DNA of 64,000 bases from contig CAYVUY010000001.1 of assembly GCA_964455195.1 (NCBI GenBank), positions 3,642 to 67,641 on the forward strand, in the 5' to 3' direction. This document shows positions 6,064 to 60,254 of this stretch, piece after piece. The notes beneath the pieces are model-generated. The model did not search any database. It saw nothing but the letters and a program-made list of their open reading frames with translations, and was not told the DNA's origin. Numbering within the stretch: position 1 is the stretch's first letter; each line of letters opens with the position of its first letter. The translations under genes were made by a program, and so were the position numbers. The stretch is from an uncultured Candidatus Saccharibacteria bacterium (GTDB lineage Bacteria > Patescibacteriota > Minisyncoccia > Phycocordibacterales > UBA5272).

Positions 6064-8160
6064 TTACACATCATCCTCTCCTATTTCTACATTAGTCTCT
6101 ACATTCTTTAACCCCTCTTCTTCATTTTTAAGAGCTCTTCCTTTCAAAACTTTTATTTCATCACGAAGTATTGCAGCAGTTTCGAAATCAAGTGCCTTCA
6201 CTGCTTCTTTCATTTGTTTTTCTTTCAACTTAATTAATTTAGTTGGATTTTTTGCAAATAACTTTTGATCCACTTCAAGTTCTGTCGACACTGCTTTATC
6301 GTGATCACTTGCTATACCTTCTGTAATATCTTGTATGCTCTTTGAAATAGTAATCGGAGTGATGTTGTGTTCTTTGTTATATGCTTCTTGTAATGCGCGT
6401 CGTCGATTGGTCTCACCTATTGCACGCTCAAGTGAACCTGTCATCTGATCTGCATATAAAATAACTCTTCCCTTAGCATTACGTGCTGCACGACCGATAG
6501 TTTGAATAAGCGATGTTTCACTTCGAAGGAATCCTTCTTTATCAGCATCAAGTATCCCAATAAGTGTTACTTCTGGTAGGTCTAATCCTTCACGGAGCAA
6601 GTTAACTCCCACAAGACAATCGAATTCTCCTTTTCGGAATCGAGTAAGAATTTGAATACGTTCAATGGTTTTAATATCACTATGTAAATACTCTGCCTTA
6701 ATACCTTCCCCACGAAGATACTCGGAAAGAGACTCTGCCATTTTCTTGGTGAGTGTTGTTGCTAGTATTCTTCCACCTGCTTTTGTATCTTTAATTGTTT
6801 CTTGTATAAAATCATATACTTGACCCTTATATGCACCCTTTTCTAACACTGGTCGAACGAAGAGTTGCGGGTCGAGCAATCCTGTCGGACGAATAATCTG
6901 CTCCACCACTTGTTCCCCTTCTGTGCGCTCATACTCACCTGGAGTAGCAGAAACATACACAACCTGACCAATACGCTCTTCGAATTCTTCATAACGTAGT
7001 GGGCGGTTATCTTTCGCTGATGGAAGACGGAATCCGTATTCGACGAGTGTCTGCTTGCGAGACTGATCTCCTGCATACATACCGTGTAATTGTGGAAGTG
7101 TTACGTGTGACTCATCTATCACAGTTAAGAAATCCTGTGTTCCGTCTGGAAGTTTAGGAAAATATTCAATAAGTGTATCCGGTGCAACCCCTGGTGCTTT
7201 ACCTGATAAGTGTCTTGAGTAGTTTTCGATTCCTTGGCAGAATCCCATTTCTCTAATCATCGCTATGTCATAACGAGTACGACGCTTAAGGCGCTCTACT
7301 TCTAGAATCTTACCTTCCTTTTCTAATTCTGCGAGACGTTCTTTAAGTTCCTTCTCTATAGTTTTCACAGCTCGTTCACGTGTTGGAATATCAGAAATGA
7401 AGTGCTTTGCTGGGAAAATAAAATAATCATCTACTTCTTTTAGAATGCGCATAGATACTGGGTCAGTCACAATCAGTGAAGAAATACTGTTACCTGCTAT
7501 TTCTATTTGAAGCATTACTGTTTCTGATATAGGCATAATATCTATTCTGTTACCTATCGCACGGAATGTTCCTGGTGAAAGATCAGCGGTAGTTCTTTCA
7601 TATTGAATATTTACGAAACGTTGCATGAGCTCTGCCTTTGATGCAGGGTCTCCCACTGAGAGTTTAATATTCTCTCTTTCGTAATCAGCTGGTGACCCGA
7701 GACCATAAATACATGATACAGATGCGACGATAATAACATCACGACGTGTGAGAAGCGCTTGAGTAGAAGCGTGACGAAGACGATCAATTTCTTCATTAAT
7801 CTGAGCGTCTTTCTCTATATAGGTATCCGTCACTGGCATGTATGCCTCTGGCTGATAGTAGTCGTAATACGATACGAAGTAATGCACCGCCGCATCAGGA
7901 AAGAATGAACGGAATTCTTGTGCGAGTTGTGCAGCGAGAGTTTTGTTGTGAGCTATAACAAGAGTTGGCTTTTGAATTTCATTAATAACACTAGCCATAG
8001 TGAATGTCTTCCCTGTTCCGGTAGCACCAAGTAATGTCTGCTTACGCATACCTTTATTAAGCCCTGCCACGAGAGCTTTAATTGCTTTGGGTTGATCTCC
8101 TGCTGGAGTAAATCCTTTTAGAACGAATGTTCCCTCACCTCTTTTGTTCTTGCTTGACAT
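6064..8160 (-). CDS. uvrB: Excinuclease ABC subunit B
   Basis: 698 aa. Helicase motifs GATGTGKTFTMA, DESH. C-terminal UVR domain ALDFETAAILRDEI. Confidence 0.95.
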   Translation of the reverse strand: MSSKNKRGEGTFVLKGFTPAGDQPKAIKALVAGLNKGMRKQTLLGATGTGKTFTMASVINEIQKPTLVIAHNKTLAAQLAQEFRSFFPDAAVHYFVSYYDYYQPEAYMPVTDTYIEKDAQINEEIDRLRHASTQALLTRRDVIIVASVSCIYGLGSPADYERENIKLSVGDPASKAELMQRFVNIQYERTTADLSPGTFRAIGNRIDIMPISETVMLQIEIAGNSISSLIVTDPVSMRILKEVDDYFIFPAKHFISDIPTRERAVKTIEKELKERLAELEKEGKILEVERLKRRTRYDIAMIREMGFCQGIENYSRHLSGKAPGVAPDTLIEYFPKLPDGTQDFLTVIDESHVTLPQLHGMYAGDQSRKQTLVEYGFRLPSAKDNRPLRYEEFEERIGQVVYVSATPGEYERTEGEQVVEQIIRPTGLLDPQLFVRPVLEKGAYKGQVYDFIQETIKDTKAGGRILATTLTKKMAESLSEYLRGEGIKAEYLHSDIKTIERIQILTRFRKGEFDCLVGVNLLREGLDLPEVTLIGILDADKEGFLRSETSLIQTIGRAARNAKGRVILYADQMTGSLERAIGETNRRRALQEAYNKEHNITPITISKSIQDITEGIASDHDKAVSTELEVDQKLFAKNPTKLIKLKEKQMKEAVKALDFETAAILRDEIKVLKGRALKNEEEGLKNVETNVEIGEDDV

Positions 8161-8238
8161 AGTCGATTATTGATTATAGCATAAAATCGAACATCAACCA
8201 CTTTAGTCAACAACGATACACAAGAAAAGGAGCCTTAC

Positions 8239-8613
8239 ATGTCTTCCCCTGAAACGTTGCAAGACCTCGCAGTCACGCATCGCCTCGTGTCAACACCGGA
8301 TGATTTGAAAATCATCGCGACCCTCATCAATGAGCGCGTCGATAACGGTGTCTACGCCTACGAGAAAGGACGAGAGAAGCTGATAGATGCTCATGAGTAC
8401 ATCACGAGCCCTGTCTACTTCGAAGCTCGCCACGGACAAGTTCGTCTCTACGGACGCGTTCGGCAAAGCGGGAAAGTGTGGGGGATCAGCATCGCTGGAA
8501 CCCCAACAGCCCCAGTCATCAACGTGTTCGCACGTGGACATGAAGGAAACCCTGTGCAGTCGGTTGATTTTGCAATTTACATACCGAAATGGTACGAAAA
8601 AAGTCACGGGTGA
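8239..8613 (+). CDS. Hypothetical protein, first gene of a GC-rich three-gene operon
   Basis: AAGGAG RBS. GC content clearly above flanking genes. Confidence 0.5.
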   Translation: MSSPETLQDLAVTHRLVSTPDDLKIIATLINERVDNGVYAYEKGREKLIDAHEYITSPVYFEARHGQVRLYGRVRQSGKVWGISIAGTPTAPVINVFARGHEGNPVQSVDFAIYIPKWYEKSHG

Positions 8614-8657
8614 AGTGCACAGTACCTTAACACAACCAACACTTACTTGGAGGGTCT

Positions 8658-8993
8658 ATGGATACACAAGAACATAGCGACGACCCTCGAAGGGTCTGTC
8701 TGCCGAGCAAGGGTGCACTCCTCCTTCGCGCATTAAGCGATGGGGATACGCGCATCTATATCAAACTGCAAGACCTTGGAAAGGATTCAACTGAACTGTT
8801 AGAGTTTTACAAAGTTGGTTTGCCCCCATTTGATTTATCACGTAGGGGCGGAGCACTGTTACTGACATGTTCAGAGCCGGGGAATCCTAACAAACGCAAA
8901 AACCTGCAACTAATCAATGACACCATTGTTGATGAGTCTGGACGCACCCCGAAGACGTATTCGGTCATCATGCCGAGGTGGCTTCATGACTAA
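8658..8993 (+). CDS. Hypothetical protein, GC-rich operon gene 2
   Basis: Same strand and composition as its neighbours. Its stop overlaps the next start (ATGACTAA). Confidence 0.5.
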   Translation: MDTQEHSDDPRRVCLPSKGALLLRALSDGDTRIYIKLQDLGKDSTELLEFYKVGLPPFDLSRRGGALLLTCSEPGNPNKRKNLQLINDTIVDESGRTPKTYSVIMPRWLHD

Positions 8994-9423
8994 CATCGAC
9001 CCGTATGATGTCGGTCCGTTCGGTGAGCCGGACTTTGACTACATTGATTTTTTGGAACAGGTACACGACTTCGATGAGTACTCATTTTTCTATGAGGACC
9101 TGGATTACGAAGAAGTACTCAAGCTCTGTGGTATTGTTGAATACGACCTTCATCCTTTCTATGAGGACACATCACTTTACCAAAGAACGATTCTTTCTGA
9201 TCAGGAATTCCTAACGACCGATAACGTATGGCGTATAAGGACCGCCAAAGAAAAGCATGTAGGAAGAAGTGAACGTCAAAAGGCAACGGAGATTCTGCAA
9301 TCCCTCCGTGAAGAAAACCCAGCGACACAAAGTACTGACGAGTGGCTGCACTCTTTTGAAGTTGGAACACGCTGTTACGAAATATTGCAAGCCCCATTGG
9401 GGAAACTGAAACCACGCCTATGA
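8986..9423 (+). CDS. Hypothetical strongly acidic protein (aromatic and D/E-rich N-terminal half), GC-rich operon gene 3
   Basis: ATGA overlap coupling with the upstream gene. N-terminus MTNIDPYDVGPFGEPDFDYIDFLEQVHDFDEYSFFYEDLDYEE. Confidence 0.5.
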   Translation: MTNIDPYDVGPFGEPDFDYIDFLEQVHDFDEYSFFYEDLDYEEVLKLCGIVEYDLHPFYEDTSLYQRTILSDQEFLTTDNVWRIRTAKEKHVGRSERQKATEILQSLREENPATQSTDEWLHSFEVGTRCYEILQAPLGKLKPRL

Positions 9424-9447
9424 GAACGAAGATTCTCGGGCGGGTTT

Positions 9448-10701
9448 TTATTTTTTATAATATCTTTCGATAAAATTATTTTTGAATTTTAAAAAGTTAC
9501 CTTCGATGAGAGCTTGTCGTGCATTCTCCACTAATGTAGTGATAAATTTAAGATTATGAAGTGATGCGATAGTGGCTCCTGTCATTTCATCAGAACGGAA
9601 TAAATGTGCGAGATAGCTCTTCGTATACTGATGTGTGTACCATGTAGGTTCATCTGATACTGGCGTCATATCTTCTTTGTACTTTGCATTGAATATATTG
9701 ATACGACCATCAAGAGTATAGAGTCCACCATTACGCGCAATACGTGTCGGAGCAACACAGTCGAAGGTATCTATTCCATTTTCTATTCCAAGTAAAATAT
9801 CTAACGGTTCTCCAATGCCAAGTAGGTGACGAGGTTTACCTTCTGGTAGAATTTCATTCACCCATCTCACAGCTGTACCCATATCTTCTTTTGTAAAACT
9901 TCCCCCTATTCCATATCCATCGAAATCCATAGCACCTAGAATTCTAGCTGATTCCTTGCGTAAATCTTCATATGCTCCACCTTGCACAACTCCAAAAAGT
10001 GCTTGCATTTCTCCAGTAGCTTGTGATACTCCGAGGCGCTTATGTTCTCTTAAACTGCGCTCTGCCCAGCTATGGGTTCTGTCTATTGCTTTTAATTGAT
10101 ACTCCTTCGGAGCTAGTGGTGAGGTACATTCATCAAATGCAAAAAACATATCCGCGCCCAAGTTGTGCTGTATCTGCATACTGCGCTCTGGTGTGAAGCG
10201 ATGCTCACTCCCATCAATAATAGATTTAAACGTCACACCTTCATCATCTATTACCGCTAACTTCTCATGTGCATTCGTTGTTTCCTTTTTCTCACGCTTG
10301 GAAATATCTTGTGTTTCTAATTCTGATATTTCTTTACTTGTTGCAATCTTACTTACACCATGCCCCATAGCTTGTCCTAAAGAAAATACTTGGAAGCCTC
10401 CTGAATCAGTAAATGTTGGACCATTCCATCCCATCATCTTGGCGAATCCTCCGTGCTTTGCTACAAGCTCATCTCCTGGTTCAAGATAAAGATGATATGT
10501 ATTTGCAAGCACTGCTTCTGCACCTACATAATCACGTACTTGTTCTGGGGTAAGTGACTTCACTGTGGCTTTCGTACCTACTGTAATAAATGCTGGAGTT
10601 TTAATATCACCATGTGGAGTATGGATAACGCCCGCACGCGCCAAAGGCGCTTCAGAAGACTTTTTTACTATTTCAAAATTAAATATTTTATTCATTTTCA
10701 A
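9448..10701 (-). CDS. tgt: Queuine tRNA-ribosyltransferase (tRNA-guanine transglycosylase), with an internal insertion
   Basis: LARAGVIHTPHGDIKTPAFITVGTKA ... FTDSGGFQVFSL ... C-terminal Zn-site-like CVAPTRIARNG. Confidence 0.9.
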   Translation of the reverse strand: MKMNKIFNFEIVKKSSEAPLARAGVIHTPHGDIKTPAFITVGTKATVKSLTPEQVRDYVGAEAVLANTYHLYLEPGDELVAKHGGFAKMMGWNGPTFTDSGGFQVFSLGQAMGHGVSKIATSKEISELETQDISKREKKETTNAHEKLAVIDDEGVTFKSIIDGSEHRFTPERSMQIQHNLGADMFFAFDECTSPLAPKEYQLKAIDRTHSWAERSLREHKRLGVSQATGEMQALFGVVQGGAYEDLRKESARILGAMDFDGYGIGGSFTKEDMGTAVRWVNEILPEGKPRHLLGIGEPLDILLGIENGIDTFDCVAPTRIARNGGLYTLDGRINIFNAKYKEDMTPVSDEPTWYTHQYTKSYLAHLFRSDEMTGATIASLHNLKFITTLVENARQALIEGNFLKFKNNFIERYYKK

Positions 10702-11188
10702 TATTTTTAAACATCCTATAAGAATCGGTAATGAACCCTAAAGATTCATAAAAACAAATAGCCTTACTGTTTCTTGCTTTTACATTTAATCTTACAATAG
10801 TTATTCCTTTGCTTTTAGCCCACCCATAGAAATCTGCAAGCAGACCCGTGCCGATTTTACTCCCTCTAAATTCTTCAACAACAAAAATCCCATCACAAAA
10901 TGCTATTTTTTCGACACCAAAATAATTACTAATATCTTCTGTATAGCCTAAAATATATCCGATTGGATTTTCATTAGAAAATATAATTTCGCAAAATACA
11001 TCGTGATTGAAAGCCTCTTTTATTTCTTTTTTAAAATCGACCTCGGGTGTTTGTTTAGGCTTTAGCTCCGAATAGTTAAAGTTATTTTTAATATATTCAT
11101 CATTAAAGTTCTGATACAAAAAAATTAATGCGTCTCTATGCAACTCTAAATTTTCTTTAGATACAATAATCTTTTTAAACTCAATCAT
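10688..11188 (-). CDS. GNAT family N-acetyltransferase
   Basis: Motif A: IFVVEEFRGSKIGTGLL. Confidence 0.8.
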   Translation of the reverse strand: MIEFKKIIVSKENLELHRDALIFLYQNFNDEYIKNNFNYSELKPKQTPEVDFKKEIKEAFNHDVFCEIIFSNENPIGYILGYTEDISNYFGVEKIAFCDGIFVVEEFRGSKIGTGLLADFYGWAKSKGITIVRLNVKARNSKAICFYESLGFITDSYRMFKNIENE

Positions 11189-11301
11189 ATCGGCATTCTA
11201 CCATGAATTGTAAAGTAAGAAGAAACAGTGTAGGCTACATCGTAAGTGCTCATTTTATTTTCGCGAGCAACCCATCCACCTTATTCATTGAAGGATTTTC
11301 C

Positions 11302-12081
11302 ATGACCAATAACGAAAAGAATGCTCAGGCAAACTTTGAGAAGTTGGTGATGGATACAGTCATTCAAATTGACTCCTTCACCCCTTCAAAGAATGCACAC
11401 GATCGCGAGCGATTGTATCAGCTCGTAACCACCATTTTACTAGCCTCGCTCAAGCATTTTGGCAAAGCTGGTATGAAAGGTATTGTCAGAACAATGCTCT
11501 TTAGTGCCAAAAAGCACGCGGGGGTATACAGGGCTGATGAATCTACTCCATATTTCCATCATCCGCTTGAAGTTACGCTCATCGCTTTTTCTTGTGGAGT
11601 CTTTCACTATAAACTCACGCAAGCGATGATTGCGCATGATACGTACGAGGATACCGATACGCTACTAAATGAGTTACAGAGACTGTTCGGACTTCTCGTG
11701 AGAGAAATTGTCTCGCATGTCAGCAAAAAGAAGCATGCTGACGGCACTCCTGACAAGTACTTCTTCCGGCGGTTGCGTCGTTGCAAGAAACTGCTAGTTC
11801 GCATACTTGCAATTATTGCGAAATTTGCCGACCGAATCCACAATCAAAAAACAACAAAGCCTTTAAGTGAGGAGAAGGTACGCCGGAAAATTGCCGAAAC
11901 AGAAAAGGAGTTCCCACTACTTGAGAAGGTCCTTCGCAGGTCCGTCAAAGAGTACGTTAAGATTCACAAGAAGGAACTATACCTTCTGCGCGCAGTGGAT
12001 TTGCTCGTCTTGCAACTGCGAGATGCAGTAAGAGCTGCGAAACATGAGCTTGCCTCGCGAGGTAAGAATCCGTCGCCGTAA
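11302..12081 (+). CDS. Stand-alone HD-domain (p)ppGpp-hydrolase-like protein (RelA/SpoT N-terminal HD fold, SAH/Mesh1-like)
   Basis: HHPLEVTLIA ... AHDTYEDTDT ... ADRIHNQ, matching the SpoT HD motifs (H..., HDxxED, DRLHN). Start chosen at the ATG with the best context. Moderately GC-enriched. Confidence 0.7.
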   Translation: MTNNEKNAQANFEKLVMDTVIQIDSFTPSKNAHDRERLYQLVTTILLASLKHFGKAGMKGIVRTMLFSAKKHAGVYRADESTPYFHHPLEVTLIAFSCGVFHYKLTQAMIAHDTYEDTDTLLNELQRLFGLLVREIVSHVSKKKHADGTPDKYFFRRLRRCKKLLVRILAIIAKFADRIHNQKTTKPLSEEKVRRKIAETEKEFPLLEKVLRRSVKEYVKIHKKELYLLRAVDLLVLQLRDAVRAAKHELASRGKNPSP

Positions 12082-45265: not shown

Positions 45266-45431
45266 GTGTCGACCCCTCAACTAGGTTAATTGATTGTTAC
45301 TTCCATAAGCATTTTAACAATTTAAATGGTTTAAGACAAAACAAGAATCTTAGACGTAACTCTTTATAAAATCTCACTGTCATCCGATTTTATTATTTTC
45401 ATGTAAATGAGCTATGGTATACTGACATCCT

Positions 45432-49957: not shown

Positions 49958-52348
49958 TTAAAATATACTATCTAGTAAACCTGTAAACCAATCCTTAACT
50001 GATGTTCCTCCACTTACAGTCGGTGCTGTATCTGGTCCTGTAAATTGCTGGAAGAATTCTTCTGATCCCCCAGGTCCATTTGAGTCATTTGGTCCAACAC
50101 CTCCGCCAATACCTTCATCTGGTGATGGACTAGGCATAGGTTGAGGGTTAGAAGATCCATTACCCATTAAGCTACCGACGCCATTAGAAATGGTATCCCA
50201 GAGTCCTCCGAAGGTATAAGTATTATCAGTATTTCCACCTGCACTACCTCCAACTCCATATGTTCCGAAGTATCCACCTGTACTAGAAGACGCTGGCTGA
50301 TCAATAGTAGAATTAGTTCTTCCTATTGTTGCACTTGATTTAAGTGAAGTACTTTTTACTTCTATGGTTGCAGTTACTATATTATTAGGTGAGGATTTTT
50401 TACGGAAATATGAAACTGTTTTTATTCCACCTGTACCCCATGTGCTTTGATCGTATACTATTTTACCCACGAGAGTATTCCCAACAAAATTCCAATCATC
50501 ATTTCCATTGAAATCAACGAAATTACTAGTTGTATTACAATACGTAGCATTAACTGATGCAGGCGAAGTTGGGTTAGCTACTACTGCATAACAAGCTTGA
50601 ATATCTCCTGATTTAGCATTCCCTACTGTAAACGTTACACTACTTCCTTGCGATGTATACAGTGTTCCTGCTTCTGGAGAAATAGTTATTGGATTACTAT
50701 TAACTTCGCCAGTTGAAGTAGTTCCCTTGCATATGAATCCTCCTTGCATAGCTTCTTTCACTGTTCCTTCTGGACAATTACATGGTGCATGACCTAACGT
50801 AGAACGAAATGTATTGATAGGACACACCTCAGGTTCCCCATTTGCAGGTAGAGGACGAAGTATAAAAGCTTCATTTTCACCCAACTTTGCAAGCATTCCA
50901 TCTGCTATGTATCCAGCTTTATTAAAATTAATCAATGAAACAAAAGCAGGTTCTACATTAGATATTGCATATCTTCCGCTGGTGTCGGTAGTTGCGGTAT
51001 ATGAACCTCCGAACCCAACCATAGGAATTACAACATTCACTCCTGCTACTGGTTTACCTGTAGTATCTCTTACAACCCCAGAAACATTCTTAGCTACTTC
51101 AAAACTTGCTTCTCCGTTTGGAGTACAATTAAATATCTTTGCATTCGTATCTGTTGCACTTGTCCCAACTTGGCAGGCAGCAGCACCCTTACTACAACTA
51201 ATACCAGTATCGCCTGCCGGAAGACCTGCAGTAGAAAATGAGCAGCTTAACTTTGGATGATCAAATATTGATGAAGGTGGTGTATGCATGTTCCATCTAT
51301 ATTGAACAGCTGCAACGTTCTGACATGTTGATTGTGTTGTGCGCCATTCAGCAGCAATATACTCACAATCAGTACATCCTCTATATATTCTAAATGGATC
51401 GATTCCTTGTCCCCCTCTTTCATCACAAGGACCGTAGTTAGTAAGTGTTGTTGCTTTCACACCATTTGCCTTCATCGTAATACTTGCAACATTGGCAGAA
51501 ACCATAGGTGGAGTTACTTGCCCTCCTGTATATGGTATTAAAGCAGCAGCAATAGCTTTTACATTATATATTTGATCAGAAGTATTAACTGTAGTTGCTC
51601 CTTGACCATTTGCATAACAAATATACTCTATCTTACCTGTAGAATCCGCATACCATTGAGCTGGAGAAACTCCCATATACTTAGGTAATATTCCACATGA
51701 AATTCCTACGCCCACTTGGCAGAGATCTGATCTACTAGCATTTTCACAAGAAGATGCCGGAGCTCCAACACGACTGAAACGTAACAAATAACCACTAGTA
51801 AAATAACGTGACGGTAATCCTGTAACCGTAACCTTGAATAGTTCATTCTGTGTGGTAACTAATTTATCTACTTCTACATGAAGAACTGTATCGGCTGTTG
51901 TTTGTCCTCCTGTGGTACTTTGATTAAGAGCACTGCTAACTTGTCCCTTTTTAACATCTTGAATATCAATAGTGGTCGTAATAGGTGTAATAGCAACATT
52001 ATTTATCTTTATGATAGAAGCCTTTATTGTTTCATTGGAATCGGTGACACTATCTGCATTAGTCTGTACTCCGAAAATTTTCCCCTCAGTATCTCCCTTA
52101 GCAAAAGGAATAGAGAAATAACCACTTAACCCAGGAACAATGAAATCAGAACCGGCACTAGCTGTCCCTTTTTCTACCTTAATAGTAACTGTTGTCGGTT
52201 CTGTGACATCGTGTGGTATCACAGTAACCACAGCACGAAGCCCTTCTGCTACGGTATAAGCACTTTTAGAGAAGGTAAAACTTGCTGCCGAAGCGAGAGA
52301 AACACTACTGATAATGATTGATAAAAGACTAATGGCTATTTTATTCAT
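49958..52348 (-). CDS. Large secreted surface protein (796 aa). Calx-beta domain, CarboxypepD_reg/Cna-B-like domain, Cys/Thr/Gly-rich regions, Gly-rich C-terminus. Putative adhesin.
   Basis: Signal peptide MNKIAISLLSIIISSVSLASA. Calx-beta motif KGTASAGSDF...AKGDTEGKIF. DTTGKPVAGVNVVI...TDTSGRYAISNV. Confidence 0.65.
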   Translation of the reverse strand: MNKIAISLLSIIISSVSLASAASFTFSKSAYTVAEGLRAVVTVIPHDVTEPTTVTIKVEKGTASAGSDFIVPGLSGYFSIPFAKGDTEGKIFGVQTNADSVTDSNETIKASIIKINNVAITPITTTIDIQDVKKGQVSSALNQSTTGGQTTADTVLHVEVDKLVTTQNELFKVTVTGLPSRYFTSGYLLRFSRVGAPASSCENASRSDLCQVGVGISCGILPKYMGVSPAQWYADSTGKIEYICYANGQGATTVNTSDQIYNVKAIAAALIPYTGGQVTPPMVSANVASITMKANGVKATTLTNYGPCDERGGQGIDPFRIYRGCTDCEYIAAEWRTTQSTCQNVAAVQYRWNMHTPPSSIFDHPKLSCSFSTAGLPAGDTGISCSKGAAACQVGTSATDTNAKIFNCTPNGEASFEVAKNVSGVVRDTTGKPVAGVNVVIPMVGFGGSYTATTDTSGRYAISNVEPAFVSLINFNKAGYIADGMLAKLGENEAFILRPLPANGEPEVCPINTFRSTLGHAPCNCPEGTVKEAMQGGFICKGTTSTGEVNSNPITISPEAGTLYTSQGSSVTFTVGNAKSGDIQACYAVVANPTSPASVNATYCNTTSNFVDFNGNDDWNFVGNTLVGKIVYDQSTWGTGGIKTVSYFRKKSSPNNIVTATIEVKSTSLKSSATIGRTNSTIDQPASSSTGGYFGTYGVGGSAGGNTDNTYTFGGLWDTISNGVGSLMGNGSSNPQPMPSPSPDEGIGGGVGPNDSNGPGGSEEFFQQFTGPDTAPTVSGGTSVKDWFTGLLDSIF

Positions 52349-52424
52349 ATACTTAATGGTATCTCGTTATAAATACAAAAGAAAGCCTTTATAATAAAGG
52401 CCTGTGGAGAACATTTTTTTACAA

Positions 52425-52442
52425 TATAGCATATATGCTATA
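52425..52442. promoter_or_regulatory. Perfect 18-bp palindrome TATAGCATA|TATGCTATA, 34 nt upstream of the HTH-MurA start. Candidate autoregulatory operator.
   Basis: 9+9 perfect inverted repeat overlapping -10-like TACAAT/TATACA elements. Confidence 0.45.
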
Positions 52443-52475
52443 CAATAATACTTATACACGTATCGAAATTTATTT

Positions 52476-53993
52476 ATGAAAAACACCTTGGAAGATGCGG
52501 GGAAAATAGGACTATTTATTAAACAACTCCGCGAAGAAAGAGACTTAACCCAAGGAGATTTAGCTGACGCACTGAAAACAACTCAAAGCGTCGTTGCTCG
52601 TATCGAAACAGGTAAGCAAAATATTACCATAGAACAGATTTCTAAAATTTCTGAAGTCTTAGGCCGACCTATTCTTTCTCTTCAAGATACACTTGATTTT
52701 AAAATCGAAGGTGGGCGCAAACTTTCAGGAAGTATTGAAACCAACACGTCTAAGAATGGTGCTATTAATATGCTGGTTGCTTCTCTTGCAAATAGCGGCA
52801 CCACCATATTACATGGTATTCCACATATTGAAGAAGTGTATAGATATATAGAACTTTTAGAGAGTATTGGCGTTAAGGTACGCTGGATAAAAGATAACTC
52901 AGTAGAAATAGTACCTCCCAAAAAATTAAATCTAAAGGCCATGAACAAGAACGTTGCGATGAAAATACGCTCTTTCACTTTTATCGGCGCTTTCATTCAC
53001 TATAGTAATCACTTTTCACTCCCCCACTCTGGAGGATGCAAAATGGGTGAACGCACTGTAGCATCTCATAAATATGCTCTTGAGCATCTAGGTGTAAAAA
53101 CGGTGACGAAAGAAAGTTTCTATGCTATCTCATATACCAAACTACAACCTGGTCGCATTCCACTCTATGAATCTTCTGACACCGGTGCTATCACCGCTAT
53201 TATTGCTGCATCTCGTATCCCAGGGGTGACAGTAATTAAATTTGCTCCACCTAATTATCAAGTTCAGGATGTTTGTTTCTTAATGGAAAAGATGGGGGTC
53301 AAGATTGAAGGTATAGGAACGAGCACACTTACTATTCATGGTAAGAAAGATATTAATGTAAATATAGAACATCATAACAGTGAAGACCCTATAGAAAGTA
53401 TGTTCTTCATCTCTGCGGCAATAGTAACTAAATCTAAGCTCACCATTACTAGATGTCCTATTGATTTCTTAGAACTAGAACTAGAGAAGCTTCGTCATAT
53501 GGGACTCATATACCGACTTTCAAAACCTTACCTTTCGTATAATGGTCGCACTCATTTAGTAGATATTACTATTATGCCGTCGAAGCTTACTGCTCCGACA
53601 GATAAAATCCACACCCAACCTTTCCCTGGAATAAATAATGACAACCTTCCATTCTTCGTACCAATATGTAGTTTTGCAGAAGGTCAAACCCTTATTCATG
53701 ATTGGACATGGGAAAACCGTGCTATTTATTTTACAGAACTCAATAGACTTGGGGCAGATATTAAATTACTTGATCCACATCGAGCACTCGTAACTGGTGT
53801 GAAAAAACTTCGTGGTGCTCAGATAGTTTCCCCTCCAGCATTACGCCCTACTGCTATTATTCTTATCGCCATGCTGGCTGCAGAAGGAACATCTATGCTT
53901 CGTAATGTGTATTCTATTAAACGTGGCTACGCTGATATAGCAGAAAGACTTAATTCTATCGGCGCCAAAATAACTGTCATTAAAGGAGTGTAA
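52476..53993 (+). CDS. murA: Fusion protein: N-terminal XRE-family HTH DNA-binding domain plus full-length UDP-N-acetylglucosamine 1-carboxyvinyltransferase (MurA/EPT family)
   Basis: IKQLREERDLTQGDLADALKTTQSVVARIETGKQNITIEQISKISEVLG (Cro/C1 HTH). Then GSIETNTSKNGAINMLVASLANSGTTILHGIPHIEEV and LPHSGGCKMGERTVASH (MurA active-site Cys loop). Confidence 0.8.
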   Translation: MKNTLEDAGKIGLFIKQLREERDLTQGDLADALKTTQSVVARIETGKQNITIEQISKISEVLGRPILSLQDTLDFKIEGGRKLSGSIETNTSKNGAINMLVASLANSGTTILHGIPHIEEVYRYIELLESIGVKVRWIKDNSVEIVPPKKLNLKAMNKNVAMKIRSFTFIGAFIHYSNHFSLPHSGGCKMGERTVASHKYALEHLGVKTVTKESFYAISYTKLQPGRIPLYESSDTGAITAIIAASRIPGVTVIKFAPPNYQVQDVCFLMEKMGVKIEGIGTSTLTIHGKKDINVNIEHHNSEDPIESMFFISAAIVTKSKLTITRCPIDFLELELEKLRHMGLIYRLSKPYLSYNGRTHLVDITIMPSKLTAPTDKIHTQPFPGINNDNLPFFVPICSFAEGQTLIHDWTWENRAIYFTELNRLGADIKLLDPHRALVTGVKKLRGAQIVSPPALRPTAIILIAMLAAEGTSMLRNVYSIKRGYADIAERLNSIGAKITVIKGV

Positions 53994-54071: not shown

Positions 54072-55757
54072 TTGTTTTATATGCCACACAGAACTACACA
54101 GAACAAACAATCATTGTCTCATCCTAATAATGTTTCTTGTCGTAACATCAATGTTATTGCCAAGTATGTACATAACAAAATTGGTAGCGATGTTCTTCTC
54201 ACCTCTAATCTGACGTACATGCCAGAGTATTTGTTAAATGAGCACAATTGGGTACCGCTTCATGTCTATAACGAAGTAATGAATCGTGCTATCTCACTCC
54301 TAAATGATCCAGATGCGCCTTATAAAATGGGCCTTTCTGCGATGGAGCTTGAAAGTTGGGGAATTTTTAAATATATACAAAAAATATTTCTTACTGTTGT
54401 TATCGACCCGATCATTGTCTACCAAAAGATTAGTGAGTATAATCCCCTCTTTAATAACACTAAGGACTTTCATCTTCTTTCTACGAGCGATACGCATTGT
54501 GTTTTCAAAGTAGAATTCCACACAGATGTAAATCCGGTAGAAGATTATCATAGTGACAAGTATATTCAAGGATTACTTGCGAGCATTCCTCAGATATGGA
54601 ATCTTCCTTCCTCTTCTGTGAAATCAATTTCGAATGAATATGACGTTATCGATTTACTACACAAAAAAGGAAATGTACCTCTTGATGCTATTGAAATGAA
54701 TAGTGACACTTTATTTATACGAGGAGAGGCAATTGGGAAACGAATCGCCAGCTATAAAGAAGAAAACTGGTGGCAAGATACTGTACGCTCCACTCATAAA
54801 ATACATGATGCGCTTATGTATGAGAGTCTCATCGAAGCGAAATCAAAAGTTGGATCAGGTATTCTTATTACAAAGGATTATAACGCGAGCGATATGGTGC
54901 ATTTAAAAGTTGGTGAAATATATAATGCTCCCCATTTCCTCTATCATATTTCATGGGATAAACCATCGCTTTCTCTTAGACTTCGCCATCTTTTTTTTAA
55001 TCAAGGTCGCTCTCGCAAATCTTATGAAAGTGCAATCGTAGCATCCTTATCTACCATTAAAGGGTACACCGAGACGCTTGAACAAAAGGTAATCGAACGT
55101 ACTCACGAACTAGAAGTAGCAAAAAAAGAATCAGAATACTGGCGAAACAAAGCAGATGAACTTCTTTCTACAATGCTTCCAGAACACATTGCGAAGAAAA
55201 TGATTGAAAAGGAATTAGAAAGTCAGGAAGTTCATGGCACTGTACTATTTACAGATATTGTAGGCTTTACTGAGTATAGCCAAAATAATGATAAAGAATT
55301 TGTAGACCAAGAACTGAAACTATACTTCGCAGAAATTACAAACATAGTTACTAGACATGGTGGTTGGGTAAACAAATTTTTAGGAGATGGAATGCTTGTA
55401 GTATTTGGATTAAATGGAGGAACGCAGTATGTAGAAGATGGAGCAAAGGCAGCAAAAGCAATAGTCGAAACAATAGAGCAGTATTCATGGGGAACACGAG
55501 TAAGTCTCTCTACGGGGCCATTTACTATTGGTGAATACGGTAATGGTGCACTCAGACGATTCGATTGTATGGGTAATGTTCTTAATTTAGGTAGTCGCTT
55601 ACAAAATCACGCTGACAAAAATCAAATTCTTATTTGTGATAATACTTACAAAGCATTATCTAAAGAAAGTGCGATGTATAACTTTGGTAAAATGCGTACT
55701 CTAGATGTGAAAGGTATTGGTGAAGTAACAGCATACCCTCTTATTACTTCTCATTAA
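54072..55757 (+). CDS. Class III adenylate/guanylate cyclase with a large uncharacterised N-terminal sensor region and coiled-coil linker
   Basis: C-terminal VLFTDIVGFTEYSQ ... KFLGDGMLVVFG ... class III cyclase motifs. Confidence 0.8.
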   Translation: MFYMPHRTTQNKQSLSHPNNVSCRNINVIAKYVHNKIGSDVLLTSNLTYMPEYLLNEHNWVPLHVYNEVMNRAISLLNDPDAPYKMGLSAMELESWGIFKYIQKIFLTVVIDPIIVYQKISEYNPLFNNTKDFHLLSTSDTHCVFKVEFHTDVNPVEDYHSDKYIQGLLASIPQIWNLPSSSVKSISNEYDVIDLLHKKGNVPLDAIEMNSDTLFIRGEAIGKRIASYKEENWWQDTVRSTHKIHDALMYESLIEAKSKVGSGILITKDYNASDMVHLKVGEIYNAPHFLYHISWDKPSLSLRLRHLFFNQGRSRKSYESAIVASLSTIKGYTETLEQKVIERTHELEVAKKESEYWRNKADELLSTMLPEHIAKKMIEKELESQEVHGTVLFTDIVGFTEYSQNNDKEFVDQELKLYFAEITNIVTRHGGWVNKFLGDGMLVVFGLNGGTQYVEDGAKAAKAIVETIEQYSWGTRVSLSTGPFTIGEYGNGALRRFDCMGNVLNLGSRLQNHADKNQILICDNTYKALSKESAMYNFGKMRTLDVKGIGEVTAYPLITSH

Positions 55758-57214
55758 TCGTGTTTCTTAAGAATAGGGAAATTATGTTTTTTCGCATAGT
55801 GTTTTAATTTCCAATCAGGATTCACCGCGACAGGATGTCCCACAAGAGATAAGAATGGAATATCGACATAACTATCAGCATAAGCATAGCTATTCTTAGC
55901 ATTAATTTGCTTTTCTAACATAAAGTTTTTAACAGCGTGTGCTTTTTCATCACCGCGACATAGAAGTGTTATATCTCCTGTATATGTGCGCCCGCGTTTA
56001 ATAAGAGAAGTATCTATGGCTTTATCTGCTTTAAAGAATTCTACGAATGCGTCCGCTATTGGATGCATCACTTCTGTCACGAATACTATATGATGGTGTT
56101 TAGCAAGATGATCTTCAAGAATAGCGAATAATCCGTATTCAAGTTTAGGAAGAGCTAACTCTCGGAAGAATCTTCCCATGAGCTTATCTATTGCCTCCAC
56201 ATTCCATCCAGCCAATAGATGTATCGCCTCTTTCATAAGCTTCTTATGATTAATGAAATGTATTTTTTCAAGAATAAAAAGATACATAATGTATGAAAAA
56301 TCTTTTACTGGAATATTCCCTTTTCGTGTCATATAGACAAGAAAATCAACCTGAGAAAGACTCTTATAGATAGTTAAGTCGATATCTACGAATACCCCCA
56401 CATCAGATGCTTCATGACGCTGTTCATTTAAAAGTCGTAATGGTAAATGCTTTAATACCTCATTTTCTAGCTCTTGGGTTCTTTCTTTTATCCTATGGCG
56501 CACTTTCATATCAGTACTGAAGAGTACATGCTCGTTGTACCCCTGTTCTGGAAGAAAACACTTACCGAACTCGATTGTTACTTTTCTATTTCCTGTTTTA
56601 AATGTATCTGAAAATACTTTATGAGAATCTTTAAGTACAACCGTTTGAATCGGAGATTGAGCGGCATAACTTAATCTCACTGCTCCAGTATGGAAACGAT
56701 ACAATGCTTCTAATAATTCAGCGTGTCCTTCAGGAAACATAAGAAGTGAGTTGCCACGTTTAAGAGCTTTTAGGGCTTTATGGAGAGCTTCATACTTAGT
56801 ATTAGACTTTGGATACATTCTATGGTCCACCTCATCACGTATGACATCTATTGCTCCCATTCCCTTAAGCCATAAAGCAATAATGCGTGGAAATTGTCTA
56901 AGAGGTGCAACCATAGGGATTACATTTGGACCAAGTAATGCCTGCAAAAGAAATCCATCCATTTCACTGGGATGATTACTTACGAATATTGTTGAGTCAT
57001 CTAAGAAAAAGTTATTAGCAGTAACAACTTGTACACGTGAAAGATAGAATGCTGCACGAATTATTTTAATGGAGCACTCTCGGAAGAAATATTCCCTTTC
57101 ATGACGATTTTTAAAAAAGTATGAAGCAAAAAGTACAGGTATGTACGCAGTACTAGTAAAGAGTGTGAGGTAGCATTTTATAACGAAAAGACGGAACATA
57201 AAATTACATGCCAT
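55754..57214 (-). CDS. Bifunctional 1-acyl-sn-glycerol-3-phosphate acyltransferase (PlsC-like, N-terminal) plus HAD-IB hydrolase (C-terminal)
   Basis: Acyltransferase NHPSEMDG (HX4D) and FPEGH. HAD motif I FVDIDLT. Motif IV AYADSYVDIPFLSLVGHPVAVNP. Confidence 0.75.
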   Translation of the reverse strand: MACNFMFRLFVIKCYLTLFTSTAYIPVLFASYFFKNRHEREYFFRECSIKIIRAAFYLSRVQVVTANNFFLDDSTIFVSNHPSEMDGFLLQALLGPNVIPMVAPLRQFPRIIALWLKGMGAIDVIRDEVDHRMYPKSNTKYEALHKALKALKRGNSLLMFPEGHAELLEALYRFHTGAVRLSYAAQSPIQTVVLKDSHKVFSDTFKTGNRKVTIEFGKCFLPEQGYNEHVLFSTDMKVRHRIKERTQELENEVLKHLPLRLLNEQRHEASDVGVFVDIDLTIYKSLSQVDFLVYMTRKGNIPVKDFSYIMYLFILEKIHFINHKKLMKEAIHLLAGWNVEAIDKLMGRFFRELALPKLEYGLFAILEDHLAKHHHIVFVTEVMHPIADAFVEFFKADKAIDTSLIKRGRTYTGDITLLCRGDEKAHAVKNFMLEKQINAKNSYAYADSYVDIPFLSLVGHPVAVNPDWKLKHYAKKHNFPILKKHD

Positions 57215-57324: not shown

Positions 57325-58146
57325 TTAGTCGAGCGTTGGTGTCCCTTCTTTCTTTTGCATGCCTTGCTTTGGAAATGTCACATAAAAGGTTGAACCTACA
57401 TTTTCTGTTGAAGTAAACCAGACCGCGCCTCCGACGTTACTTACTATAAGTTCAGTCATATAGAGCCCCAATCCAGCACCTTTACTCTCTTCTCCTGCAA
57501 CATTAGACCCTTTATAGAGTTTAGAAAATATTTTTTCTTTATCTTTTTCGGGGATTCCAATTCCAGAATCAGTAACAGAAAACAGAAGGCTATCTTCTAG
57601 TATCTTTTCACCGCCACATTCATCCCCTTGTTTCACTTCATGTATCGAAACAAGTACTTTCCCCTCCTCTTTCGAGAAAAGGATTGCATTAGAAATAAGA
57701 TTTCTCAAAATTACTACACACATCTGCTTATCAAGTAAAAGAGTTGGAACCAGTGGAGAAGAATCGCTTACGTACGACTCTTCTATGGTTATTTTCTTTT
57801 CTGTTATGAAACTACTCAGCTCAGAAAGTACTTGTTTAACTATCCGACTAAGATCAGCTTCAACTGGAGAGATACTAAAAGTACCCAGGGTTAACCTGGA
57901 TACGTTTAGTAATGACCTAATAAGGTCAATAGCTCTCTCATTACTTGATTGTATGGTCTTTAGATATTTTGTTTGATCATCATTTAATGTTCCACAGTCA
58001 CCATCTAGTAGCATTTCTGTGTACCATTTTATGACAGATAGTGGGGTTCGTAGATCATGTGCGGCAAGTGATAATAGTGTATCACTTGCTTTTTCATGAC
58101 CATCCGCATCACTTCTTTCGTGGTGATCAACTAGTTCTAAAGACAT
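57325..58146 (-). CDS. Soluble sensor histidine kinase (HisKA plus HATPase_c). No TM or sensor domain, and no response regulator in the window.
   Basis: H-box LAAHDLRTPLS. N-box LRNLISNA. G1 VTDSGIGIP. G2 GAGLGLYM. Confidence 0.85.
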   Translation of the reverse strand: MSLELVDHHERSDADGHEKASDTLLSLAAHDLRTPLSVIKWYTEMLLDGDCGTLNDDQTKYLKTIQSSNERAIDLIRSLLNVSRLTLGTFSISPVEADLSRIVKQVLSELSSFITEKKITIEESYVSDSSPLVPTLLLDKQMCVVILRNLISNAILFSKEEGKVLVSIHEVKQGDECGGEKILEDSLLFSVTDSGIGIPEKDKEKIFSKLYKGSNVAGEESKGAGLGLYMTELIVSNVGGAVWFTSTENVGSTFYVTFPKQGMQKKEGTPTLD

Positions 58147-58160
58147 ACTTCAAATGTGTA

Positions 58161-58610
58161 CTATCTTGTAACAGTAATCGTAGCGCCTTGCTCAGCAAGT
58201 GGAGCTGTAACAGTAATACGTCCATACGCATTCTTTGAAATGGTATATCCGTTGCCGTTAACAGTAATCTTTTGTGGGTCCTGAGGAATAGCAGTAAGGT
58301 ACTTACCATTAACTGTAAGTACTGACAAATCTATAAGTCCAGTACACGAAGCTGCTCCTGATGCACAAATTTCTGTTGTTGATGCCACGATAGATGCAGG
58401 CAATACTCCATTGTTATCAATTGAGTATTGGTATGCTGCGTTAAGAAGTGTTGTCACATCAGAACGACGTTGTGCGTTACGAGTATCACCAAGTTGCTTA
58501 CCTGGGTTAATAGCCACGATAACGATACCTGCCAAAATAGCGATAGCTGCAACCACGAGAAGGATTTCAATAAGTGTAAACCCTTTCTGGCTACGTAATA
58601 ACTTTTTCAT
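58161..58610 (-). CDS. pilA: Type IV major pilin (prepilin), copy 1
   Basis: MKKLLRSQKGFTLIEILLVVAAIAILAGI class III signal (G/FTLIE). C-terminal Cys pair CASGAASC. Confidence 0.85.
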   Translation of the reverse strand: MKKLLRSQKGFTLIEILLVVAAIAILAGIVIVAINPGKQLGDTRNAQRRSDVTTLLNAAYQYSIDNNGVLPASIVASTTEICASGAASCTGLIDLSVLTVNGKYLTAIPQDPQKITVNGNGYTISKNAYGRITVTAPLAEQGATITVTR

Positions 58611-58624
58611 GCTCTACTTTTAAA

Positions 58625-59074
58625 CTATCTTGTTACGGTAATTACCGCACCTTGCTCAGCAAGTGGAGCTGTAACGGTAATACGTCCATTCACATCCTTA
58701 AAGATGTTGTAACCATTACCATTTGCAGTAACCTTTTGTGGGTCTTGTGGAATACCAACAAGATACTTACCGTTAAGAGCAAGTACTGATAGGTCTATAA
58801 CACCAGTACATGATGCTGCTCCTTGCGCACAAATTTCTGTTGATGAAGCAGTAATGCCTGCAGGAAGTACTCCATTGTTATCAATTGAGTATTGGTATGC
58901 TGCGTTAAGAAGTGTTGTCACATCAGAACGACGTTGTGCGTTACGAGTATCACCAAGTTGCTTACCTGGGTTAATAGCCACGATAACGATACCTGCCAAA
59001 ATAGCGATAGCTGCAACCACGAGAAGGATTTCAATAAGTGTAAACCCTTTCTGGCTACGAAGTAATTTTTTCAT
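58625..59074 (-). CDS. pilA: Type IV major pilin (prepilin), copy 2
   Basis: Identical N-terminal 72 aa to copy 1. Diverged C-terminal D-region (CAQGAASC). Start chosen at MKKLLRSQKGFTL. Confidence 0.85.
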   Translation of the reverse strand: MKKLLRSQKGFTLIEILLVVAAIAILAGIVIVAINPGKQLGDTRNAQRRSDVTTLLNAAYQYSIDNNGVLPAGITASSTEICAQGAASCTGVIDLSVLALNGKYLVGIPQDPQKVTANGNGYNIFKDVNGRITVTAPLAEQGAVITVTR

Positions 59075-59305
59075 AAAATGTAAATTAGTATTTTTGTATT
59101 TAAACACATTAACCTTATAAATGAGGCACTATAGAATTTGTAGACTTGATTGAAGTTCGTGACAGAGCTCATGGATTAATGTCATCATACGTTGATGAAA
59201 AACATAGAACCTGAAACCGTAGCCAAGAAATTCATCAAGCACACAAATTCTATATAAAAAGGCACAAATAACTTGCCTTAGTCAGTATATCAAATATAGA
59301 AGGGT

Positions 59306-59731
59306 TTAGAAGTCCCCAACCTCTTTCCATGAGGATAAGATTATTGAGGGGGTAGTCGTAGCAATAACGATTTTTACCTTACTTAGGATGGTTCCGACCT
59401 GCCCTGTTGCATTAACCGTTATATTTTGGCCGTTTTGGCTGGTAATAGTGTAGGAACATGTACCCGAAGCAATCGTTAAATTACCACTCCCCGTGGTTGT
59501 TCCAGTTTCTAGTATTTTTTGCAAAGCCTCTTCTCCACATGAAGAAGCTGCTACTTTAGCACTTCCTGCTTGCTGTAATGCGAAATCTGTCCTTGATGCA
59601 GTCACCCCAGAAAGTAACACTGAAAGCATGATTGCTGTGCCAATAGCTCCAATAATAAGAACTGAAAGTAGCGCTATGTACCCTCGACGCATATGTACTC
59701 TTAATCCCCTTGTATGAAAGGTACTTGTCAT
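59306..59731 (-). CDS. Pilin-like / pseudopilin protein with atypical N-terminus
   Basis: ...MRRGYIALLSVLIIGAIGTAIM hydrophobic N-terminal helix after Gly. Cys pair. Lacks Glu+5. Confidence 0.5.
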   Translation of the reverse strand: MTSTFHTRGLRVHMRRGYIALLSVLIIGAIGTAIMLSVLLSGVTASRTDFALQQAGSAKVAASSCGEEALQKILETGTTTGSGNLTIASGTCSYTITSQNGQNITVNATGQVGTILSKVKIVIATTTPSIILSSWKEVGDF

Positions 59732-59735
59732 GGAT

Positions 59736-60254
59736 TTATTGTCTCAGTGTAGCACTTCCTGTAAATGACTTTGTGAAGGAATTTTCATTACGACCACTGG
59801 TATTAATATGGTCTATAGTAAAAGAAATACGTACTATTCTGTCAGTAGAACCTACAGATGAGATATTTTGAAATAGAAGTGAGGAAACAGCCACATGAGA
59901 ATTCGTAAGTAATATAGGAGCATTTGACCCCTCTGTGATTCTCACAGAACCATTTACTATATCAAATACTGTCGGACTAAGAAGCGGGTCAGACATAGTC
60001 ATTGATAGTGAAGTGCTTGTTGCTCCTATACTAGGGAAATCAACAGTTTTGGCATTTCGTATTGTCTGAGTTACTAATTGCATTACTTGTAACCCCTGCT
60101 GATTAACATCACCTATAGATTGATTTTTGATTCTTGAACTCATGAGGAATGTTAAGAACAAAGAAAGCGAAAGGAGTACGAATGACAAAACACTTACATA
60201 TAATAGTAATTCAACTAGTGAAAACCCTCTGAAAGTTCTTGGTACTATTTTCAT
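59736..60254 (-). CDS. Minor pilin / pseudopilin (prepilin-type N-terminal cleavage/methylation domain)
   Basis: RGFSLVELLLYVSVLSFVLLS. Confidence 0.7.
   Translation of the reverse strand: MKIVPRTFRGFSLVELLLYVSVLSFVLLSLSLFLTFLMSSRIKNQSIGDVNQQGLQVMQLVTQTIRNAKTVDFPSIGATSTSLSMTMSDPLLSPTVFDIVNGSVRITEGSNAPILLTNSHVAVSSLLFQNISSVGSTDRIVRISFTIDHINTSGRNENSFTKSFTGSATLRQ

Follow-up and report, generated by a model that had tools for sequence, protein, structure and literature searches.

Why should an enzyme of peptidoglycan synthesis carry a DNA-binding domain, and does this domain act on the palindrome that precedes its own gene? The question is raised by positions 52,425 to 53,993 of a 64,000-nucleotide stretch (contig CAYVUY010000001.1) from an uncultured Candidatus Saccharibacteria bacterium, which we refer to as the window. 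Here, a helix-turn-helix (HTH) domain of the XRE or Cro/C1 type is joined in frame to MurA, the fosfomycin target that catalyses the first committed step in making peptidoglycan. Based on a computational comparison of this locus with its relatives, we propose that the protein is probably bifunctional, acting both as a MurA enzyme and as an autorepressor of its own gene.

The gene encodes a fused HTH-MurA protein

An uninterrupted open reading frame (ORF) on the + strand (52476-53993, stop codon included) encodes an HTH-MurA fusion protein of 505 amino acids (aa), an assignment based on the frame itself, Pfam and NCBIfam matches and cluster data. The HTH domain at aa 10-66 (52503-52673, + strand) was delimited by the Pfam family HTH_3 (aa 15-66, E 3e-14, 53.2 bits against a cutoff of 23) together with the helices that AlphaFold2 predicts at aa 2-21, 26-32, 37-44 and 52-62. 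The modelled helix 37-44 belongs to a recognition-helix segment, T35-T36-Q37-S38-V-V-A-R42-I-E44 (52578-52607, + strand), whose motif is near-invariant among relatives. A short linker of about 8 residues (aa 67-74, 52674-52697, + strand) leads from the HTH to the first MurA strand. The MurA (enolpyruvyl transferase, EPT) domain occupies aa 75-505 (52698-53990, + strand), in agreement with matches to EPSP_synthase (PF00275; aa 78-492, E 9e-40) and to the NCBIfam MurA subfamily model NF006873 (314 bits, cutoff 297). MurA alignments of the protein start at aa 75. It is only about 27% identical to canonical MurA. Its best solved relatives are MurA enzymes, with 5ujs as the top sequence match in the PDB (E 7.7e-52).

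The AlphaFold2 model, made from a 64-sequence family alignment, reached a mean confidence (pLDDT) of 90.2 and a predicted template modelling score (pTM) of 0.82. Confidence falls below 50 at aa 68-70 of the linker, and the first MurA strand runs from aa 73. A Foldseek comparison with MurA structures gave a template modelling (TM) score of 0.94 and root-mean-square deviations (rmsd) of 2.0-2.1 Å; the closest structures are the liganded, closed states 1a2n (rmsd 2.0 Å) and 6q03. The HTH part is covered by no solved chain among the Foldseek matches. Direct reading of the sequence places the active-site loop LPHSGGCKMGERTVASH at 53022-53072 (+ strand), with Cys188 (codon 53037-53039) and Arg193. 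The model gives it low confidence at aa 187-192, as expected of this flexible loop in MurA.

We next compared the catalytic residues, numbered as in E. coli MurA, whose sequence in the alignment was verified against 1uae. Orthologous loci came from a scan of one genome per species, which yielded 80 loci; taxon names, among them "Saccharibacteria" for many loci, are those of the submitters' record titles. K22, N23, R91, C115, R120, D305, R331, R371 and R397 are invariant in all 80 orthologues, and 57 of 64 members of the wider family retain all nine. The equivalents in the window protein are, in the same order, K93, N94, R165, C188, R193, D389, R415, R457 and R483. The MurA half thus looks catalytically competent as far as its sequence tells. 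MurA domains are about 77% identical between species.

The fusion is widespread in Patescibacteria

All of the top 120 protein clusters (76-100% identity) contain both domains within 501-516 aa, and the fused ORF is present in 79 of the 80 species-representative loci. Together, these two observations indicate that the fusion is not a frameshift artefact. By title, the 80 loci all belong to the Patescibacteria or candidate phyla radiation (CPR), including Paceibacterota, Nomura- and Kaiserbacteria, Minisyncoccia and others. A profile-free search of 1.8 billion representatives recovered fused members down to 31% identity, and a search seeded with a distant member brought in further fusions, with the labels Lipton-, Taylor-, Colwell- and Doudnabacteria. 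Over much of the Patescibacteria, the HTH-MurA fusion seems to be the usual form in which the enzyme occurs. Within the HTH, R19, Q26, T35, Q37, R42, E44, G46 and N49 do not vary among 64 family members at 35-91% identity to the window protein, and the recognition-helix motif T[ST]QS..AR[IM]E is almost invariant in the family.

An earlier note, made from the letters of the window, had described a 505-aa protein in which an XRE-type HTH continues in frame into a MurA with its active-site Cys loop, and had named a frameshift or stop between the two parts as the observation that would speak against it. The uninterrupted frame, the HTH_3 and EPSP_synthase matches and the loop itself bear this description out, and the same fused ORF across genomes rules out the interruption. 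Fusions in other genomes, which the note had suggested looking for, are found widely, both in the species loci and in the actinomycete genus Nonomuraea.

In Nonomuraea, a cluster of 246 members from cultured species shares 51% identity with the window protein. The orthologue of Nonomuraea phyllanthi (L081 9972-11530, from CP045572.1, 5663057-5684586) has intact catalytic residues and resides in a GC-rich actinomycete genome, 16 nt 3′ of a gene for a formyltransferase/enoyl-CoA-hydratase fusion and directly 5′ of a phage-type integrase. Its presence there points to a horizontal gene exchange in which CPR bacteria and actinomycetes took part.

Several further members of the family were noted. 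The metagenome-assembled genome (MAG) CAYWEW01 carries two fused HTH-murA genes on separate contigs (L007 and L009), 80% identical to each other and each with one operator of the type described below; they represent either true paralogues or a bin that mixes two species. P0184 and P0125 stand for two further architectures: one is a 1204-aa protein with a C-terminal MurA domain (aa 755-1202), another a 529-aa protein of the MurA subfamily with a divergent, HTH-like N-terminal extension of 75 aa.

A conserved palindrome behaves as the operator of the HTH domain

Upstream of the gene, TATAGCATATATGCTATA forms a perfect 18-bp inverted repeat at 52425-52442 (arms TATAGCA and TGCTATA around TATA), which ends 34 nt before the ATG and which, from its conservation in the family, we annotate as a putative operator. 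The centres of its half-sites lie 11 bp apart, about one helical turn. A consensus scan predicts a promoter at the same place: a –35-like hexamer TTTACA (52418-52423, + strand) and a –10 hexamer TACAAT (52441-52446) match the consensus at 10 of 12 positions with 17-nt spacing. The palindrome occupies this spacer, and its right arm overlaps the extended –10 region TG-C-TATACAAT (52436-52446, + strand), an element that recurs in the relatives.

It is the sole match in the window at up to three mismatches and the single perfect palindrome of at least 18 bp within the 64 kb. Since 32% of simulated windows of this size (second-order Markov) also hold such a palindrome, we rejected length alone as a measure of significance; it is the position and the conservation in orthologues that make this repeat significant. 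The note's perfect 18-bp palindrome 34 nt upstream is exact, and its view of the placement as operator-like holds as well: the repeat covers the –10 region and the spacer, a position that fits repression.

A motif TATAnCA-N4-TGnTATA with up to two mismatches is present 5′ of 80 of 88 fused genes, 53 of them with a perfect match. It is maintained across lineages down to about 31-36% protein identity, including distant ones such as Doudnabacteria (L090), Liptonbacteria (L091), Colwellbacteria (L092) and locus L089. Among the eight exceptions, three lack upstream DNA on the contig, four carry a different recognition helix (L049, L076, L077 and L079, the latter three of the Kaiserbacteria type), and one is Nonomuraea. 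By eye, no convincing alternative palindrome was found in the four loci with a changed helix. Nonomuraea has a variant, ATCTCA-N4-TGAGAT (AATCTCATATGTGAGATA), which is AT-rich and ends 11 nt before a GTG start codon; the same arms occur in L072.

The distribution of the left arm is particularly informative. It is found in none of four unfused MurA genes of the same subfamily (L080, L086, L087 and L088), which keep TGnTATA(A/C)T. When extended –10 sites were compared, symmetry of the left arm at 6 or more of 7 positions was seen in 52 of 65 sites of murA genes but in only 3 of 187 such sites elsewhere. Because the palindrome is kept with the fusion and is missing both from unfused relatives and from lineages with a changed recognition helix, it behaves, at the level of comparative sequence data, as the cognate operator of the HTH domain.

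A further correlation concerns the variable base pair 5/14 of the operator, which changes symmetrically in both arms (T:A, G:C or C:G). In at least two clades that are separated in a tree of the MurA domain alone, G:C goes with Thr36 and T:A with Ser36 at the N-terminus of the recognition helix. Across the 80 loci, the combination Thr36/G:C holds in 16 of 17 Thr-type loci and Ser36/T:A in almost all of about 57 Ser-type loci.

Beyond murA, we found little sign of other targets. In the window, a scan with the family motif finds just the murA site, and at two mismatches it has 5 matches against 6.2 expected, which is chance level, and 935 kb of related loci hold about 10 further matches against a chance expectation of 3-11; a wider regulon was therefore rejected. 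The earlier note had also suggested looking for half-sites at cell-wall genes; in relatives the site faces murB, and in the window no other site occurs. Five of the approximately 10 extra matches lie 5′ of trxB-like genes. Near-matches just 5′ of such thioredoxin-reductase-like genes were seen at L005 1660, L028 251, L035 2252 (a perfect palindrome, TATATCACGTGTGATATA), L038 3161 and L044 155, and a further one at 45404-45421 of the window. Inspection of 36 such promoters attributes these matches mostly to the generic extended –10 that they share; we do not claim trxB as a target, though it may be a second one.

Orthologues appear mostly leaderless and often share the palindrome with murB

In the orthologues, the –10 hexamer lies within or abuts the right operator arm. 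The first in-frame ATG follows 4-12 nt 3′ of the –10 in 62 of 77 loci, with a mode of 6-9 nt, implying leaderless mRNAs in most of them; the Nonomuraea gene shows the same geometry. The operator is kept with co-directional upstream genes (Nramp, about 35 loci) as well as with divergent ones (murB, mreB and others), and is thus not simply a pair of back-to-back promoters.

In about 20 loci the divergent neighbour that shares the palindrome is murB, recognized by the Pfam domains MurB_C and FAD_binding_4. In about 14 of these, its ATG is located 8 nt from the palindrome, whose left arm reads TGATATAAT on the murB strand. The upstream neighbour of the gene in the window is divergent, too, and Pfam detected neither murB nor any other mur gene among 20 neighbouring ORFs of the window. 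The divergent neighbour is mreB in Taylorbacteria-like, Liptonbacteria and related lineages (L089 2877-3890, L091 2855-3862 and one further locus), where it belongs to a conserved block of genes for an M50 peptidase, ribosome recycling factor (RRF), the δ′ subunit of DNA polymerase III and MreB. In these lineages, the operator region may face a cell-shape gene.

Catalytically dead relatives retain the HTH domain and the operator

No second murA, which the note had proposed to look for in the genome, and no other HTH_3 gene were detected in the 64-kb window by tblastn, and no second EPT-family gene was found within 6-10 kb at more than 80 loci. A sister clade behaves differently. Seven sampled fused proteins (P0131, P0132 and P0286-P0290) have lost C115, R91, R120, R371 and R397, and P0136-P0138, P0187 and P0193 are similar to them. 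In these degenerate proteins, N23, D305 and R331 are still present, and neither the full-length fold nor the HTH nor the recognition helix has been lost.

In both degenerate loci that we examined, the gene is divergent from a real cell-wall operon. L083 (8598-11477) carries an unfused murA-murB pair on one side; 3′ of the fused gene follow ddl and a gene for a Mur ligase. In L093 (3174-11518), the genes on one flank are murD-ligase-ligase-murA-murB, and a further Mur ligase gene lies 3′. The operator resides in the shared intergenic region of 60-71 bp, in L083 preceded by a perfect TTGACA at the place equivalent to the –35-like hexamer of the window. It is also present in L085 of the same clade, where the neighbours (7388-11467) are murB and a RelA/SpoT-like gene. 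The unfused murA of L083 is only 25% identical to the fused proteins; we therefore rejected a recent duplication as its origin and assign it to a different MurA lineage.

Hence, where another murA is present, the fused copy has lost catalysis while keeping HTH and operator, and where none is nearby, the catalytic residues are conserved. From this pattern, we argue that the ancestral protein and those of the window type do both jobs. That the dead paralogues still keep the EPT fold suggests that this fold contributes to regulation, by sensing or by dimerisation.

A model for autoregulation by MurA and its alternatives

In the model that we favour, the C-terminal 430 residues would be a working MurA that makes enolpyruvyl-UDP-N-acetylglucosamine, the first committed peptidoglycan precursor, and the N-terminal HTH would bind the 18-bp inverted repeat as a dimer, over the spacer and extended –10 of its own promoter. 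Occupancy of the operator would block RNA polymerase and result in negative autoregulation, so that the amount of MurA would set the rate of murA transcription. In relatives with a divergent murB, one dimer could cover both –10 elements and thereby control murA and murB together. A tie between transcription and the enzyme, as autoregulation or as a moonlighting repressor, had already been proposed from the window's sequence and is now supported by comparative genomics.

We additionally propose, as a tentative extension, that the ligand state of the MurA domain modulates DNA binding and so provides pathway feedback as in BirA or NadR. The open or closed state of MurA, set by UDP-N-acetylglucosamine (UDP-GlcNAc) or by phosphoenolpyruvate (PEP) plus UDP-N-acetylmuramic acid (UDP-MurNAc), would be passed through the 8-residue linker to the HTH. 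The Foldseek matches include solved MurA structures (3swd, 3su9 and 8d84) that, by their PDB titles, are "dormant" complexes in which UDP-MurNAc is bound together with a Cys-PEP adduct, showing that the MurA fold senses a pathway product. It is this property, together with the short tether, the open/closed transition and the fold kept in pseudoenzymes, on which the proposal of ligand control is based. A broader version, which we consider rather doubtful, sees the MurA domain as an allosteric flux sensor at the entry to wall synthesis that switches dimer binding by the HTH and feeds back on murA, murB and, in some lineages, whole mur operons; the family would repeatedly have produced pseudoenzyme regulators and would have passed horizontally into Nonomuraea. 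If true, the synthesis of peptidoglycan precursors would be under an undescribed circuit of transcriptional control that is embedded in the enzyme itself.

Several observations weigh against the favoured model. Throughout the subfamily, fused or unfused, D369 is replaced by Pro or Ala (a "PPALRP" signature) and K160 by Glu, and the window protein reaches 301.6 bits with the equivalog model TIGR01072, below the cutoff of 392.7; full MurA activity is therefore not guaranteed. D369 has been reported to facilitate the interaction of MurA with fosfomycin (PMC4062475), and its replacement throughout the subfamily may affect how susceptible these organisms intrinsically are to fosfomycin. With respect to the operator, the right arm equals a generic extended –10, TGnTATA(A/C)T, that is also seen 5′ of unrelated genes, which leaves the left arm as the informative, murA-specific part. 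The ATG in the window is 29-31 nt away from the –10 instead of the 6-9 nt of most orthologues, and this leader contains no obvious Shine-Dalgarno sequence. The correspondence between residue 36 and base pair 5/14 is confounded by phylogeny and, when applied to four new lineages, was correct in three and failed in L089. After this miss in a prospective test, we rejected a strict Thr36/Ser36 recognition code and regard the correspondence as a tendency. Finally, we infer DNA binding, dimerisation and the sign of regulation from sequence, and MurA is usually described as a monomer.

The protein could instead be mainly a transcription factor in which the MurA-like domain functions in sensing or dimerisation, the chemistry being left to a separate canonical murA elsewhere in the genome. 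Such a state is real in the sister clade, where P0131 and P0289 lack catalytic residues and stand beside unfused murA-murB genes, and the loss of D369 and the score below the TIGR01072 cutoff would suit it in the window's own subfamily. But nine catalytic residues conserved in all 80 species and a MurA domain that is about 77% identical are unexpected of a mere sensor, it is the degenerated copies that have a canonical murA next to them, and neither the window nor the surrounding 6-10 kb of the more than 80 loci offer a second EPT-family gene to take over the reaction. Unfused orthologues of the same subfamily (L080 and P0121), moreover, resemble ordinary housekeeping murA genes, and we consider this explanation improbable. 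That the fusion is an artefact of assembly or gene calling, two genes joined by a sequencing error, is a general possibility for any metagenome-assembled contig and nothing more; it is effectively refuted, since an uninterrupted architecture of the same length recurs across independent assemblies by the thousand and in genomes of cultured Nonomuraea.

Two other explanations accept the fusion and differ in what happens at the palindrome. It might be a promoter feature, in which two opposed extended –10 elements form a bidirectional leaderless promoter while the HTH binds elsewhere or has a role unrelated to DNA. The generic sequence of the right arm, the distance of only 6-9 nt between each arm and a start codon in murB-divergent loci and the divergent upstream gene in the window are all compatible with this. 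It does not account for a left arm that is kept in about 35 loci with a co-directional upstream gene, for the near-absence of symmetry at other extended –10 sites (3 of 187), for unfused relatives that hold the –10 and lose the left arm, or for a variable base that is symmetric in both arms and a site that disappears when the recognition helix changes, making it a quite improbable reading. The protein might also bind the site as an activator or dual regulator and turn on murA (and murB), for instance by spacer remodelling of the MerR type. Activators of this kind do bind within the –35/–10 spacer, and the sign of regulation is not readable from the sequence. Here, the –10 hexamer itself is overlapped by the site, the 17-nt spacer of the window is optimal and not over-long (19-20 nt), and an abundant housekeeping enzyme that activated its own gene would give an unstable circuit. 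XRE-family proteins at such promoter positions are classically repressors (434 and lambda Cro/CI, SinR), and we judge activation very improbable. Negative autoregulation by a bifunctional MurA thus remains the reading that we prefer.

Other features of the murA loci

In the window, a terminator-like hairpin, AGGCCTTTATTATAAAGGCTT followed by a T-run (52383-52403, – strand), separates the palindrome from the divergent gene, which starts at 52348. It might shield this gene from transcription that begins at the palindrome and runs leftward, or be due to chance. The divergent gene (49958-52348, – strand) encodes a secreted-looking protein of 796 aa, in which Calx-beta-like and CarboxypepD_reg domains are combined with a tail rich in Gly, Ser and Pro, and is not conserved beside murA in other species.

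In 20 of 76 orthologous loci (e.g. L004, L026 and L089), a TCCAC core is located about 6-11 nt 5′ of the palindrome, often within TTATCCACA, which we take to be the DnaA-box consensus. The core is about 8-fold enriched over background just 5′ of the operator; the window does not have it on this strand. A –35 variant restricted to certain lineages is one possible reading, a DnaA-type site that couples murA to replication another.

Downstream of the fused gene, the window encodes a class III adenylate/guanylate cyclase of 561 aa (54072-55757, + strand) that also has a large unassigned N-terminal domain and an HNOBA-like linker, followed by a 486-aa fusion of a PlsC-type acyltransferase and a HAD phosphatase (55754-57214, – strand). 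The adjacent block (57325-60254, – strand) contains a 273-aa histidine kinase without obvious sensor or transmembrane segments, and after it several short proteins with type IV pilin-like N-termini such as MKKLLRSQKGFTLIEILLVVAAIAILAG. This block is syntenic 3′ of murA in many related species.

Comparison with known systems

The HTH-MurA architecture is common in databases, which name the fused protein MurA or "helix-turn-helix domain-containing protein", and a regulatory role is recognized in no report that we found: full-text searches of the literature turned up neither an account of an HTH-MurA fusion nor one of a transcription-factor role for MurA. Known control of MurA is post-translational and consists of proteolysis by ClpCP/ReoM in Firmicutes and feedback by UDP-MurNAc. 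A MurA with its own repressor domain would, if true, represent a transcriptional layer built into the enzyme, in Patescibacteria, which have tiny genomes and few regulators and whose cell-wall biology is almost unstudied. The locus also lends itself to tests, with an operator defined at 18 bp, a residue predicted to make the contact, a murB<>murA promoter that would be bidirectional and leaderless, and controls provided by natural loss of function, and the orthologue in culturable Nonomuraea would allow genetics and biochemistry independent of growing a CPR organism.

Compared with canonical MurA of E. coli and E. cloacae (1uae, 1a2n, 3swd), the window protein has the same fold and the same nine catalytic residues, but differs by its 74-residue HTH extension, the change of D369 to Pro and that of K160 to Glu. 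BirA, the biotin protein ligase and bio repressor of E. coli, likewise combines an N-terminal HTH-type domain with an active enzyme, and its palindromic operator lies over promoters of its own pathway including a divergent pair, which parallels the murB<>murA arrangement of the orthologues. The HTH of BirA is of the winged type, unlike the XRE-type HTH of HTH-MurA, and its enzyme fold is another one; biotinyl-AMP as corepressor and ligand-driven dimerisation are proven for BirA, which is not known to regulate its own gene. NadR, in which an HTH of the XRE/HTH_3 type precedes nicotinamide mononucleotide (NMN) adenylyltransferase and ribosylnicotinamide kinase domains, is a second metabolic enzyme with an N-terminal HTH that represses its own pathway. 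Its enzyme domains are unrelated to MurA, it belongs to the NAD pathway, and it represses nadA, nadB and pncB and is not known to repress itself.

Such proteins are related to the concept of trigger enzymes (Commichau and Stulke 2008, as cited in PMC6524683), for which PutA and PepA are among the examples. HTH-MurA would resemble such bifunctional enzyme-repressors in joining a DNA-binding domain and a catalytically competent enzyme, as judged from its residues, in one polypeptide, and in a putative operator at promoters of its own pathway, namely its own gene, murB and mur operons. No example with MurA or another enzyme of peptidoglycan precursor synthesis came up in the full-text searches. 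The degenerate clade (P0131, P0132 and P0286-P0290) finds its counterpart in the MocR/GabR regulators, in which an HTH is joined to an aminotransferase-like pseudoenzyme and a dead enzyme fold is likewise kept, as an effector or oligomerisation domain. These regulators differ from the family described here by their winged HTH of the GntR type and by another enzyme fold, and from the window protein in that the latter keeps its catalytic residues.

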